Shown here in pieces: positions 31,151-61,715 of a DNA stretch of 64,000 nt (position 1 is its first letter; the number at the start of each line of letters is the position of its first letter). The translations under genes were made by a program, and so were the position numbers. The DNA is from a virus (lineage: Duplodnaviria; Caudoviricetes), in the IMG/VR virus record IMGVR_UViG_3300031760_000050, positions 3,744-67,743 of that record. One strand, written 5' to 3'. Below the pieces are notes generated by a model that worked only from the letters and a program-made list of their open reading frames with translations, did no database searches and had not been told where the DNA came from.

Positions 31151-31681
31151 TTATTTTTGGACAATGATATCAAATCTCTTTTGAGGGAGATTTGGTACAC
31201 CACAGATACGCTTTGTAAGCGTAGTCATCACATAGTTGTGGTAGATTTTTGCTGCTGTTTGTGAAGTGATTTTCGGTTTATATTTATTCATCAGATGCGC
31301 CTCAACTTCACGTAATATCTGAAACGTAATCTCATTATAAAGATATCCGTTAATCATAGTTAGTTCATTGAAGTTAATCCGATGACCATCTTTGAGATTC
31401 ATCTCATTAATGAGATATTTTGAAGGGGCTATCTGAATTATCCCGCAGTTAAGATAATCTTCAGTATGACATGCTTGCACGCGATTTCCACAGTTCACTG
31501 TAGTAAATAATGAAAAGTGGACTGTAGATGGAACGATATCTGTGAGCATCTGCACGATTGTGTAGAACCCGTTATCAACGTTTATCCATCGGCGGTATGC
31601 TAAGTCAACGTATTGAAATATTTTTTCAGGTGATGTATCACCGGAGCTGGGTGCTCCTTGTTTTCCAGTATAGTTTTCCAT
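31151..31681 (-). CDS. Hypothetical protein, 176 aa (start uncertain)
   Basis: ORF in operon; overlaps RusA gene end by 82 nt. Confidence 0.65.
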   Translation of the reverse strand: MENYTGKQGAPSSGDTSPEKIFQYVDLAYRRWINVDNGFYTIVQMLTDIVPSTVHFSLFTTVNCGNRVQACHTEDYLNCGIIQIAPSKYLINEMNLKDGHRINFNELTMINGYLYNEITFQILREVEAHLMNKYKPKITSQTAAKIYHNYVMTTLTKRICGVPNLPQKRFDIIVQK

Positions 31682-58132: not shown

Positions 58133-58173
58133 AAAAAATAAAGTCTCCCGGGCTTAAGCCCGGGAGTTCTTTT
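58133..58173. terminator. Bidirectional terminator between TMP and ligA
   Basis: ctcccgggc-ttaa-gcccgggag. Confidence 0.88.
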
Positions 58174-60100
58174 ACATTCCTATCATTTCAAGAAATTCTT
58201 GTTCACTAATTATCTTGACGCCAAACTTCAAAGCATTGAGATACTTTGAAGATGTAGGTTCAATCAAATTAGTTACAAGATAAGCAGTCTTTTTGGTTAC
58301 AGCACTCTTAGTATTTGCGCCATTTAATTGAGCTAAGTGTTCCATCTCAGCACGGTTGCCTGTTTCGAATGAACCTGTAAATACAACGTCTTGGTCTCTG
58401 AATACCAATTCGTTCTTACCGCCATTCTCAACACGAGGAACTAACTTGAACTTACCAACTTTCAGAATCTTGAAAGTTTCACCTCTCAATGAGTTCAACC
58501 CATCAAGAAGTGTCTGTGCTGTAATTACTGCAACTCCACGTATAGAGCTTAACGAATCAACCGAAGCATCCATTATAGATTCAAGTGTGTCAAATCCAGC
58601 ATCTACAATGGTCTGTGCTAACGTTTCACCAATACCGTCTATATCAAGCCCCGCAATAAATCTTGCTAAGCTTAATTCAGTCGGATGATTGCGAATATTA
58701 TCACAAATAGCCACGGCTCGTTTTGAAAAGTTCTCCTTTGGGTTTGTGATGAAGAACTTTGTAATGTTTGAAGGATGTACGGTTGTATACAAGCTGTGAA
58801 TATCCTCGACGACTCCGTTATCAAACAGAACCTTCAAGAATGTGATTCCGAGTCCTTTGATATCCATAACCTGAATCCACTTTGACACACGGTGAAATGC
58901 ACGTTTTATACATGCTTGGTTAGGACATCGAACTTCAGTATCTGTAACTACAAGCTTCGTTCCACAACCATCGCATGTTGTAGGCGGAACGATTGCTCCC
59001 AAGAACTTACCTCCAGGAATCTGACTTTCAATCTTTGGGATTATCTCGCCACGCTTGGATACAACGATTTTAGAACCGATGTAAACTCCAAGCGATTTAA
59101 TCGTTCCCATATTTACGAGGTTAGCACGCTTCACGATTGTGCCGCAGAGTTCTACAGGTTCATAAATTGCTACAGGTGTGTACGTCGGTCCGTTCTGAGA
59201 CCATTCAACGCTCGTGATTGTAGTAACCGCAGTATCAAGCTCGAACTTGAACGCGATTTGACTGTCTGGTCTTGGTAAATCTGCGTCTTCAGGGTGCAAG
59301 TTATTATCCTTAATTACCAACCCGTCGATATTGTATGGAAGATTTTCACGAAGCACTTGCATCTTGTCTCTGAACTCGATAACTTTCATTGGATTGGTAA
59401 ATACCTCATACCAAGCTGTGGTGAAGCCTTGCTTAGTAAGCCAACGTAGTTTATCAAGCTCATTATTGAACTTTACAGAATCACAGGTACTGATAGCATC
59501 ATAGCAAATGATTGTGAGATTCTCACATCCTTCACCATTCCGCCGTTTCATGATACCATTAGCTGTATTTCTACAATTCGCCTTGTCGAAGTATTTGCTC
59601 TGGAAAACGCCCTTCATGAGGATAACTTCACCTCGTGTAGCCCCAGAAAATCCACCTGAAACTTCAGGGATAAATCCTTGCATTTTCCTTGCATTTGACG
59701 TTATAACGTCCCCATAGTACCCATTGCCACGTGTAACTGCTTTGACACATTTTCCGTTGGAATATTGCAATTCGATACTACAACCGTCGAGCTTATGCTC
59801 GACAATCATTTCCGTCCACATGTGTTTATTGTACCACGCATTAAACGTAGCATACGAATTGCATTTATTCTGACTTCCCATTGGGATTATGTGTTTTACT
59901 TTTTCAAAATCGTCGCTGTGGTCAAATCCAACTTTCTTTAAGACCGGATTATCTGGGTCGAGCTCAGTAAGCTCGTCCCAGTATCTGTCAAATTGAGAGT
60001 CTGGAATCTCAGCGTCGCCATTATAATAGAGGTCTTGATTTCTCTTGATAAGATACTCAAGCTCCTCTATTCTCCTCTTGTCTGCTGTGTTGTGTTTCAT
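58172..60100 (-). CDS. ligA: NAD-dependent DNA ligase
   Basis: EHKLDG, VTRGNG, DGLVIK, AFKF, Zn finger, HhH, C-terminal BRCT. Confidence 0.97.
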   Translation of the reverse strand: MKHNTADKRRIEELEYLIKRNQDLYYNGDAEIPDSQFDRYWDELTELDPDNPVLKKVGFDHSDDFEKVKHIIPMGSQNKCNSYATFNAWYNKHMWTEMIVEHKLDGCSIELQYSNGKCVKAVTRGNGYYGDVITSNARKMQGFIPEVSGGFSGATRGEVILMKGVFQSKYFDKANCRNTANGIMKRRNGEGCENLTIICYDAISTCDSVKFNNELDKLRWLTKQGFTTAWYEVFTNPMKVIEFRDKMQVLRENLPYNIDGLVIKDNNLHPEDADLPRPDSQIAFKFELDTAVTTITSVEWSQNGPTYTPVAIYEPVELCGTIVKRANLVNMGTIKSLGVYIGSKIVVSKRGEIIPKIESQIPGGKFLGAIVPPTTCDGCGTKLVVTDTEVRCPNQACIKRAFHRVSKWIQVMDIKGLGITFLKVLFDNGVVEDIHSLYTTVHPSNITKFFITNPKENFSKRAVAICDNIRNHPTELSLARFIAGLDIDGIGETLAQTIVDAGFDTLESIMDASVDSLSSIRGVAVITAQTLLDGLNSLRGETFKILKVGKFKLVPRVENGGKNELVFRDQDVVFTGSFETGNRAEMEHLAQLNGANTKSAVTKKTAYLVTNLIEPTSSKYLNALKFGVKIISEQEFLEMIGM

Positions 60101-60109
60101 AAATGCCTC

Positions 60110-60289
60110 TTATTCATAATGCTTTAAGAGTGTGGTAAACTTGTAACCGTATTTGTTATTCAAATCTACCAACTCCTGAAATCTTTTATCTGCTGAATCT
60201 CTGGTAGGAAATGTCTCTTGTATAGACTCATAATGTCCATCTTCCATAGGCGCACCATATGATATAGTATAATCTGAAGTTATCTTCAT
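60110..60289 (-). CDS. Small protein, 59 aa (not in ORF track)
   Basis: AGGAG SD; MKITSDYTISYGAPMEDGHYESIQETF...; stop 9 nt before ligA start. Confidence 0.65.
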   Translation of the reverse strand: MKITSDYTISYGAPMEDGHYESIQETFPTRDSADKRFQELVDLNNKYGYKFTTLLKHYE

Positions 60290-60394
60290 TAGTTTCTCCT
60301 TTGCTTTTTCAAAGCGGTTGTAAGCTTATAGTATTGTCCGCAATTCATGTGCTTTATAGATTGCTCCTTATATATAGAATGTATAATTACAACA

Positions 60395-60428
60395 AAAAAT
60401 ATCAGCTCCACGGGTGCACCCGTGGAGC
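60395..60428 (-). terminator. Intrinsic terminator ending candidate ncRNA
   Basis: gctccacggg-tgca-cccgtggagc then UGAUAUUUUUUG on minus. Confidence 0.85.
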
Positions 60429-60944
60429 CAATCTTTCTGCGTCAGCTAACGCATAATCTTACAACTCATGCACTTGGGTTGCATTGGAACTGAGGCGACT
60501 ATTGGTGGCAATCGCTAGTCGTCCACAGTTACGAGATATCGTCTTTCAAAGATGTATTACTACATCTCACGAGTTTGCTAAACTTGTCATGTAGACACCT
60601 CATCCCGAGAGAGTGCACACTCAGGACTTCTTCGCATCATTTAATCGCTCTTGCCCTACACCGCGTGAGCGAACTATCGAAAGTAGTCGAACTTGACCTA
60701 AACTAACTCTGACTGTTGAATAGGGTAATCGACAGTTTCGAAAGCAGATTATCGGCTAATCGGAGCGCCGAACTCCATACCCACGGTTCTACCAAGTTGC
60801 GCAAACTCAGCATTCAGCGAACCATATTGAAAGAGCTAACGTGCTCTAAAGCGCCTCAAGATAGGAGAAAACAGGCGCCGGTGCAATGCGCATGACGATT
60901 AGCTCGAACGGGGATAACGGAGCTAACTGTCTTGCAACCTCAGT
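60400..60944 (-). ncRNA. Candidate large structured non-coding RNA, about 545 nt
   Basis: No ORF in track; late promoter at 60944-60955; at least 8 local stems; 5' end complementary to 60489-60495; terminator at 60395-60428. Confidence 0.7.
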
Positions 60945-60955
60945 AACGTACTGTT
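60944..60955 (-). promoter_or_regulatory. Late-type promoter of candidate ncRNA
   Basis: AACAgtacgtTA inside an inverted repeat. Confidence 0.65.
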
Positions 60956-60971
60956 ACTGAGTTTTTATTTT

Positions 60972-61397
60972 TTAATCAAGAATATGAGGGTCGTACTTTG
61001 AATTTGTCGCCATACAGTAGTACGCATATACTGTGAGTAAGTCACTCTTGGTAGGTCCTTTGGTCGCAGCTGAATGACTTAAATCCCCGACTACCAAATC
61101 ATAGAACTGACCGAGATATTCATGTGTCAACGGAATCAAAGCAACGCAATCATGTTCTTTCTGATGGTAGATACCTTCGATATCATAGCATTTCCCTTTG
61201 TATCTGTAAACACAGTGTGAAGTTGGAAATGCTACGCAAACTTCACCGCCGGGATAATTTGCTTCGAGAATCTTAGCAAAGTTGTAACACTGCCCTGCAC
61301 GAAACAGTAGTCTCACAACTTCTTGCTGATCTTCATTGAACTGTCCACAGTTATCATAAATAGTTTCAATGAACTTGAGAATTGATTTCTTTTTCAT
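60972..61397 (-). CDS. Small papain/transglutaminase-like protein
   Basis: GQCYNFAKIL...SHCVY...YDIEG (C-H-D). Confidence 0.6.
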   Translation of the reverse strand: MKKKSILKFIETIYDNCGQFNEDQQEVVRLLFRAGQCYNFAKILEANYPGGEVCVAFPTSHCVYRYKGKCYDIEGIYHQKEHDCVALIPLTHEYLGQFYDLVVGDLSHSAATKGPTKSDLLTVYAYYCMATNSKYDPHILD

Positions 61398-61442
61398 AAT
61401 TGCTCCTTAAAAAGAATATCGGGAGCCAAAGCTCCCGAGCTA

Positions 61443-61715
61443 TTATTTCGTCGAATTGATAAGCTTGCGATACATCGACAAATCAATTACTAATGGATAC
61501 AGAAGATGTGCAGGTACTCCTTCCAAAGCTCTTGATTTGAGATATTTCTCAACCATATTCAAACACCGTTCACAGAGGTTCATGTTTACGGGAATTACAG
61601 AACCTTCTTTTGTCTTCGTGCGACAAACATATCTACTATACTCCTTTACGGATTCTGCTGAGCAAACACTACAAGCAGAGTTTCCATACGGAGAGTATGT
61701 TACTTGCTGAGACAT
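61443..61715 (-). CDS. Small Zn-binding hypothetical protein, 90 aa
   Basis: CSVC...CERC; GGAGG SD. Confidence 0.65.
   Translation of the reverse strand: MSQQVTYSPYGNSACSVCSAESVKEYSRYVCRTKTKEGSVIPVNMNLCERCLNMVEKYLKSRALEGVPAHLLYPLVIDLSMYRKLINSTK

Follow-up and report, generated by a model that had tools for sequence, protein, structure and literature searches.

The stretch of DNA analyzed here (hereafter the window) comprises 64,000 nucleotides of an IMG/VR phage contig that is 67.7 kb long and estimated to be 28% complete. The near relatives of this phage are contigs of about 212-229 kb from animal-gut and rumen assemblies, and its genes encode, among others, multisubunit RNA polymerase beta-like proteins, a DNA polymerase, a GroEL-like chaperonin, a tail sheath and a virion protein of 3156 aa. 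On the minus strand, a YunG-like gene is followed by the RNA element that is the subject of this report, then by a 59-aa ORF and an NAD-dependent DNA ligase, with the following coordinates:

60972-61397, minus strand: YunG-like gene, 141 aa
60394-60961, minus strand: the maximal extent of the RNA unit, running from the foot of the 5' hairpin through the U-run of the terminator; at minimum, 60440-60957 is covered by RNA contigs
60290-60393, minus strand: A+T-rich spacer upstream of the 59-aa ORF, 94-99% conserved, with low RNA depth here and downstream
60110-60289, minus strand: 59-aa ORF, downstream of the RNA element
58172-60100, minus strand: NAD-dependent DNA ligase, identified in both Pfam and PHROGs

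A preliminary description of the window, made from the letters alone, had claimed that the region between the flanking genes is free of ORFs, and this proved to be correct. The 682-nt gap at 60290-60971 contains no frame longer than 59 aa when all six frames are read with table 11, and readings with TAG as Q, with table 4 (TGA) or with TAA as Q each opened no long frame in the same interval. The sole 36-aa frame inside the RNA element lacks its start codon in one variant (L045), and the G+C content of the element is 45-48%, compared with 33-42% in its flanks. A second apparent ORF-free gap, at 31204-31599, was rejected because a 176-aa ORF spans the region. The spacer at 60290-60393 is probably a separate promoter and ribosome-binding region of the downstream genes. 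The 59-aa ORF itself gave no lead in Pfam, PHROGs or Atlas; in one sublineage (L036-L039, at the equivalent of about 60290-60300) its predicted length is 79 aa instead of 59 aa (protein P0158), and an extra A in the spacer of these contigs seems to give access to a start farther upstream. Between 48% and 90% identity the ligase is without relatives, the nearest ones outside the phage lineage being LigA of Treponema and other spirochaetes at 45-48% identity, and this spirochaete-like character could be a clue to the host or to an ancient gene transfer.

The element is well represented in RNA samples from cattle. Much of its set of sampled words is present in each of 13 bovine-gut metatranscriptome runs that are labeled as RNA and come from six studies; one of these runs comprises just 12 million letters. 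Contigs from four runs, representing four studies, were mapped on 59800-61600, and these reveal neither the strand nor the exact ends of the RNA. They occupy 60445-60957 in run X2, 60443-60929 in run X7, 60440-60756 and 60751-60953 in run X10, and 60477-60931 in run X1. Consistent with the discrete transcript that had been proposed, the RNA contigs in all four runs are confined to 60440-60957, with a depth of 0-5 on the flanks: runs X7, X10 and X1 gave zero flank cover, and run X2 had a depth of 139.5 on the element versus 2-5 on the directly adjacent genes and 10.7 on a 90-aa ORF farther upstream. In that one run (X2), the RNA is thus about 30-70 times deeper than the genes directly beside it. 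The flanks serve as a silent control, and the signal must therefore come from RNA and not from carried-over phage DNA. Multiplying depth by length gives approximately 3-4 letters per 10,000 of runs X2 and X10, a rough figure that is based on word depths.

Evidence that this RNA is folded, and on which strand, comes from several comparisons. When fold energy was compared with that of shuffled copies, none of 100 shuffles was as good on either strand (z = -3.4 for the minus strand and -4.9 for the plus strand), in agreement with the expectation that the element folds better than chance. Because both strands beat their shuffles, fold energy alone cannot choose between them. A terminator-like hairpin on the plus strand at 60939-60961, which is followed by TTTTTATTTT and overlaps the proposed start, put the strand in genuine doubt. 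Folding 12 variants to a consensus gives 158 pairs in 21 helices, and 99.3% of its 1639 cells are paired. Over the whole fold there are 190 G-U cells compared with 6 A·C cells on the minus strand of the window, which bears out the earlier remark that G-U pairs work on this strand, and in helices with changes on both sides many of the pairs are G-U when read this way. The alignment fold energy is -298 kcal/mol for the given strand and -269 kcal/mol for the reverse complement. The asymmetry of G-U over A·C and the alignment fold energy therefore place the RNA on the minus strand. We conclude that this uncultivated jumbo phage of the cattle rumen encodes, at 60394-60961, a folded minus-strand RNA that is about 520-565 nt long.

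Compensatory changes among homologues support the same fold. Changes on both sides were found in 15 of the 158 pairs, compared with 5.9 ± 1.6 in column shuffles (none of 500 reached 15) and with 0-2 pairs in slid controls, in which the partners were moved by 1-3 columns. The 12 aligned variants are 89-97% identical and belong to one phage lineage, and because all of the sequences are such close relatives, these counts reflect few independent events; they stem mostly from two divergent 5'-domain variants (L024/L025 and L047). Seven of the nine local stems listed in the preliminary description recur in the consensus fold (60898-60927, 60851-60878, 60832-60847, 60603-60626, 60550-60567, 60495-60521 and 60438-60453), and four of these seven carry both-side changes. 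The other two, at 60762-60776 and 60670-60689, do not recur; their sequence is invariant, and the consensus fold puts alternative pairings there. Between the 5' hairpin and the terminator, which are treated below with the RNA ends, the element is divided into three domains:

60832-60935, minus strand: variable 5' domain, with hairpins H1 (60890-60935), H2 (60850-60879) and H3 (60832-60847)
60571-60808, minus strand: near-invariant core of 238 nt, forming a multi-helix junction that a long-range helix of 14 bp (60793-60808 with 60571-60586) closes
60433-60570, minus strand: variable 3' domain, with hairpins at 60549-60568, 60531-60542, 60488-60530, 60461-60482 and 60438-60453, including CCUCAGU at 60489-60495

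The near-invariant core is flanked by 5' and 3' sets of hairpins that drift in sequence and keep their pairing. Identity in the 5' domain ranges from 73% (in L024) to 99%, and both-side changes affect eight of its pairs: helix 2 contributes four of these, helix 3 two, and helices 4 and 5 one apiece. In the 3' domain identity falls to 89%, and both-side changes occur in helices 15, 16 and 19, with clusters in the hairpins 60531-60542, 60488-60530 and 60461-60482 and a pairing register at the tip of the 60488-60530 arm that differs between variants. The core region, measured over 60561-60798, is 97-99% identical, compared with 91-97% for the flanking genes in the same variants; judged by these identities, the core is under tighter sequence constraint than the neighboring proteins. 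Its fold energy is modest (z = -2.1). Within the core, helix 11 (UCGCUC/GAGCGA) has two pairs with both-side changes and the remaining helices never vary, and because the core is near-invariant, most of its helices lie beyond the reach of a covariation test and their pairing is predicted.

Two long-range pairings had also been proposed. The minus strand from 60944 reads ACTGAGGTTGCA, and CCTCAGT is found at 60489-60495 and TGCAACC at 60477-60483, as stated earlier. The first pairing, a P1 helix of ACUGAGG with CCUCAGU, can form in each of the 11 full-length variants (duplex energies from -6.1 to -9.9 kcal/mol), but the changes in its partner are only wobbles (C-to-U and A-to-G), apart from one in L047/L048 that gives a central A·A mismatch. 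A local helix of AACUGUGG with the 60489-60495 segment also competes with it, being favored in L047 and lost in L025, and ACUG is in addition part of the 5' hairpin if the RNA starts upstream of 60944. These pairing models leave P1 as a possible helix. The second pairing, GGUUGCA with UGCAACC, was rejected as the main pairing. It is unlikely because its 3' partner, 60477-60483, is the 5' arm of the hairpin at 60461-60482, which carries one both-side change, and a U is deleted from GGUUGCA in two variants.

Three features mark the ends of the RNA:

60941-60959, minus strand: helix 1, a 7-bp hairpin CAGUAAC/GUUACUG, paired in nine of nine full-length rows of alignment A2
60944-60955, minus strand: promoter-like motif AACAGTACGTTA, a match to the AR9-type AACA-N6-TA with a predicted +1 at 60944, of doubtful function
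60394-60432, minus strand: intrinsic terminator with a 14-bp stem (60432-60401), a 4-nt loop and a U-run tail ATTTTTTGTT

In phage AR9, AACA-N6-T[A/G] is the late promoter recognized by the non-virion RNA polymerase, with transcription starting at its last base (PMC5312081). The window has fewer copies of the stricter form, AACA-N6-TA, than expected (22 versus 46.5 ± 7.6). Of 32 copies of AACA-N6-T[A/G], 13 are located within 150 nt upstream of a gene start on the same strand, compared with 5.9% of positions; the genes behind these copies include those for the tail sheath, virion proteins and an RNA polymerase subunit, and the copies themselves are mostly of the form (G/A)AAAACA(C), often straight after the T-run of a terminator. 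From its placement, this is a real promoter-like motif of the phage, and the whole looks like an AR9-type late promoter system. The preliminary description had given the RNA its own promoter of this type, with a start at 60944, a claim on which the evidence points in two directions. As in AR9-type late units, the phage has a multisubunit RNA polymerase, the motif is enriched upstream of genes and a copy that would place +1 at 60944 is present, invariant in 11 of 11 full-length variants. However, this copy is atypical (GTAACAG, that is, AACAG without an A-rich lead-in), the other AACAG copies all being intragenic (seven of seven), and the RNA contigs extend 9-13 nt upstream of the predicted start, to 60953 and 60957, inside the 5' arm of the hairpin at 60941-60959. 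That hairpin is either the 5'-terminal stem of the RNA or simply a DNA-level feature that overlaps the motif. The 5' end would lie between 60944 and about 60961, and would be produced by an internal AR9-type promoter or by processing at the 5' hairpin.

Processing of this kind is central to an alternative in which the RNA is a stable fragment of a 3' UTR: the YunG-like mRNA would read through, ribonucleases would trim it to the 5' hairpin and the structured remainder would accumulate. The RNA could have this origin because no minus-strand terminator separates it from the upstream gene, none being found between the YunG-like stop (60972) and 60432. The contig ends past the predicted start and inside the hairpin arm, the atypical copy of the motif, and the relatives without the large RNA, which keep the 5' hairpin and H1 directly after the YunG-like gene and then have their own terminator, all favor such trimming. 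The RNA also shares with 3'-UTR-derived bacterial small RNAs a terminator that belongs to the unit of the upstream gene and an accumulation far above that of the parent mRNA. However, the depth on the YunG-like gene in run X2 is about 45-fold lower, the AACA-N6-TA motif is invariant, and unlike these small RNAs, with their short seed region, the element has a large, conserved and structured core. It is also five to ten times longer than typical 3'-UTR small RNAs. This explanation concerns biogenesis only, leaving the 97-99% identity of the core and the kept peripheral pairing unexplained, and we consider it rather unlikely, if still worth serious attention.

The terminator that had been described at the other end, with a 10-bp stem, is real and stronger than stated, having 14 pairs of which 8 are G-C; it is conserved in 15 of 15 variants, with one C-G to U-A change. 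The contigs end at 60440-60445 on this side, immediately short of the terminator stem, which can be explained by weak cDNA recovery of a stable hairpin, by a break in the assembly at the polymorphic position 60439, or by trimming. There is no contig cover at 60394-60439 or beyond 60957, which speaks neither for nor against the ends because polymorphic sites and the stable terminal hairpin are located there, and the contig ends near 60440 and 60957 could be assembly breaks because they lie beside polymorphic sites (60439 and 60960-60962).

A strong terminator between the RNA and the genes that follow it, with depth falling from 139 to 3-5 across it, is also what would be seen if the RNA were a cis-acting leader or attenuator of the 59-aa ORF and ligase, sensing a signal and gating passage of the terminator at 60401-60432, and the three do travel together in every relative seen. 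Against a leader stands the length of about 500 nt, which far exceeds known leaders, and the lack of any match to riboswitch or T-box models. Moreover, the terminator is followed by a conserved 100-nt A+T-rich spacer with its own ribosome-binding site, which therefore suggests a separate promoter. An alternative, anti-terminator pairing was not seen, and the terminator stem pairs with itself in every fold. A leader function seems to us very unlikely.

Two kinds of relative were obtained from look-ups with exact proteins. Relatives that carry the element comprise 15 distinct variants, 11 of them full length, with 89-97% DNA identity, and wherever the contig extends far enough, the element is followed by the 59-aa ORF and the ligase in every one seen. 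Other relatives have a YunG-like protein that is at least 90% identical and different downstream genes; their DNA similarity to the window stops near 60960 or 60888, and those without the RNA are also without the 59-aa ORF and ligase at this locus. Because the RNA, the 59-aa ORF and the ligase are present or absent together, they behave as one accessory cassette at a recombination hot spot that is anchored by the YunG-like gene, a comparison in which sampling is partly biased, since most relatives with the element were fetched through the 59-aa ORF. The contigs without the cassette (about 70) outnumber those with it (about 25), and neighbors at the RNA-less loci (L004-L023, compared with 60888-61409 of the window) encode a 318-aa protein with a weak Sigma70_r4 match, a GNAT acetyltransferase and an 87-aa ORF. 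Some RNA-less relatives (L006:3427-3616, L014:3427-3561 and L017:2346-2542) still have roughly 75 nt of the sequence that follows the YunG-like gene, corresponding to the H1 hairpin, which shows covariation in these genomes; L006 and L022 retain the 5' hairpin as well, and an A-run and their own terminator follow. The retained segment may represent a short RNA or 3'-UTR element that either gave rise to the large RNA by extension or is what was left when the large RNA was truncated.

The same breakpoints, near 60960 and 60888, could be taken to mean that the element acts as DNA, with hairpins that matter at that level, for instance as an origin, a site of packaging or a hot spot of recombination. 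However, a depth of RNA some 30-70 times that of the adjacent genes, the 190:6 excess of G-U over A·C, which fits a single RNA strand, and the intrinsic terminator at the end of the element all point to a transcript. The RNA contigs have already largely refuted the DNA-level explanation, and we find it scarcely credible.

Beyond this lineage, searches with four exact core words of 18-21 nt, three in IMG/VR and one in 185,579 species genomes, gave nothing or a chance match inside an ORF, and one 20-mer scan of JGI metagenomes gave one extra near relative (L045) and three chance matches inside ORFs; because exact words miss diverged homologues, such null results are no proof of absence. Neither the YunG-like protein nor the RNA polymerase subunit had relatives in IMG/VR, and the sole relative of the ligase found there (41% identity) lacks both a gap preceding the ligase and any similarity to the RNA. 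Among GenBank phages, blastn with a word size of 11 gave no match to the region.

Comparison with known RNA families agreed with the statement that the element matches none of them. A scan of the whole window against 4227 Rfam families gave no match at the gathering score, and a scan of 901 nt with lax filters and E <= 10 returned only chance-level scraps of miRNA and snoRNA models. The ROOL model (RF03087) had no match at its 99.1-bit cut-off in the window or at E <= 10 on the 901 nt, and a family-specific search of the contig was likewise without a match, as were the control genomes. GOLLD gave no covariance-model match among the 4227 families, and the same was true of RNase P RNA, tmRNA, 6S RNA and SRP RNA. 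No riboswitch, T-box or ribozyme family in Rfam matches the element, and ARAGORN found no tRNA and no tmRNA in the 64-kb window. A group I or group II intron was rejected as well: Rfam gave no match, a separate search with RF01998 (a group II intron domain model) was also negative, and the element interrupts no gene, because the YunG-like protein is 141 aa with and without it. The suggestion of a discrete minus-strand phage ncRNA, possibly of a new class, has thus been upheld by the RNA contigs, the compensatory changes, the G-U asymmetry and the lack of a family match. The RNA is real, abundant, structured and non-coding, and apparently represents a new family, seen only in one rumen phage lineage.

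This new family falls inside a known kind, the large structured phage RNAs, and its function is something that we can only infer. The nanocages of ROOL and GOLLD are RNA-only homo-oligomers held together by kissing loops and A-minor contacts. ROOL is often found near tRNA genes or islands in phages and prophages and spans three phyla, and expression of GOLLD, many members of which exceed 800 nt, rises in the lysis of phage-infected cells. Both are phage-borne and very abundant, and form cages composed only of RNA (PMC5737381; 10.1101/2024.12.08.627333). ROOL (Rumen-Originating, Ornate, Large) averages 581 nt and has few highly conserved nucleotides (PMC5737381), and its abundance has been reported to equal that of 16S rRNA; in GOLLD the 3' region is conserved and the 5' region variable (10.1101/2024.12.08.627333). 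Like ROOL, the RNA studied here is encoded by a phage of the cow rumen, belongs to a similar size class, has many helices and multistem junctions and reaches very high abundance. Unlike ROOL, it lacks a model match and a tRNA anywhere in the 64-kb window, has a long near-invariant core and is found in only one phage lineage. The likeness to GOLLD lies in its being a large RNA of phages or prophages that is split into conserved and less conserved parts; the differences are the lack of an Rfam match, the size of about 550 nt, the lack of an adjacent tRNA, and a conserved part that is central, with variable domains on both sides. The RNA resembles ROOL and GOLLD in kind only, and the features that we tested for membership in either family are lacking.

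Taken together, we favor, as reasonably likely, a gene for a stable structured ncRNA with a near-invariant core that acts in trans as a folded particle, the action being the part that we infer. The RNA would be transcribed in the same direction as the flanking genes and would end at the intrinsic terminator at 60401-60432. It would then act in trans as a folded particle, its conserved core binding a protein, an RNA, a small-molecule partner or its own copies, in a mode like that thought to apply to ROOL and GOLLD and not as an antisense RNA or a cis leader. More tentatively, it is conceivable that the RNA founds a new family of large phage RNAs acting as folded particles, whose core is a self-assembling cage or scaffold, a ribozyme or a high-affinity decoy for a host factor, a possibility that we hold to be on the unlikely side. 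If true, it would be among the most abundant transcripts of a rumen jumbo phage, moving between phages as a cassette with a small ORF and a ligase. Beyond ribosomal RNA, RNase P RNA and introns, bacteria and phages have yielded very few known RNAs that are both large and structured, and the recently solved ROOL, GOLLD and OLE form unexpected RNA-only assemblies. With evidence of expression, a defined terminator, peripheral helices supported by covariation and an unusually conserved core, the RNA offers a concrete target for probing.

The strict conservation of the core, typical of catalytic or ligand-binding RNAs, could also be read as that of a ribozyme or of an antisense or sponge regulator, such as an anti-defense decoy. 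In these readings, a reaction would be catalyzed by the core, or single-stranded segments would bind or sequester RNAs of phage or host or RNA-binding proteins. Consistent with this, the T-loop-like sequence UUCGA/UUCAA occurs six times by eye in 545 nt, with about one estimated by chance, and ACUGAGGU at the 5' end is similar to a leader with Shine-Dalgarno sequence, at 381-403, that belongs to another phage gene. However, there is no ribozyme family match and no known target, and the high degree of pairing leaves few long single strands; we regard such a role as quite doubtful.

A minor observation concerns the 5' hairpin of the element. A second CAGUAA...UUACUG hairpin is found at 393-407 on the minus strand, giving two copies in the window versus 0.05 expected. 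The second copy overlaps a well-formed AACAC-N5-TA promoter located just after a terminator (the 381-420 region), and the Shine-Dalgarno GAGG of the gene starting at 381 is part of its 3' arm, so that this hairpin would form only in read-through transcripts.
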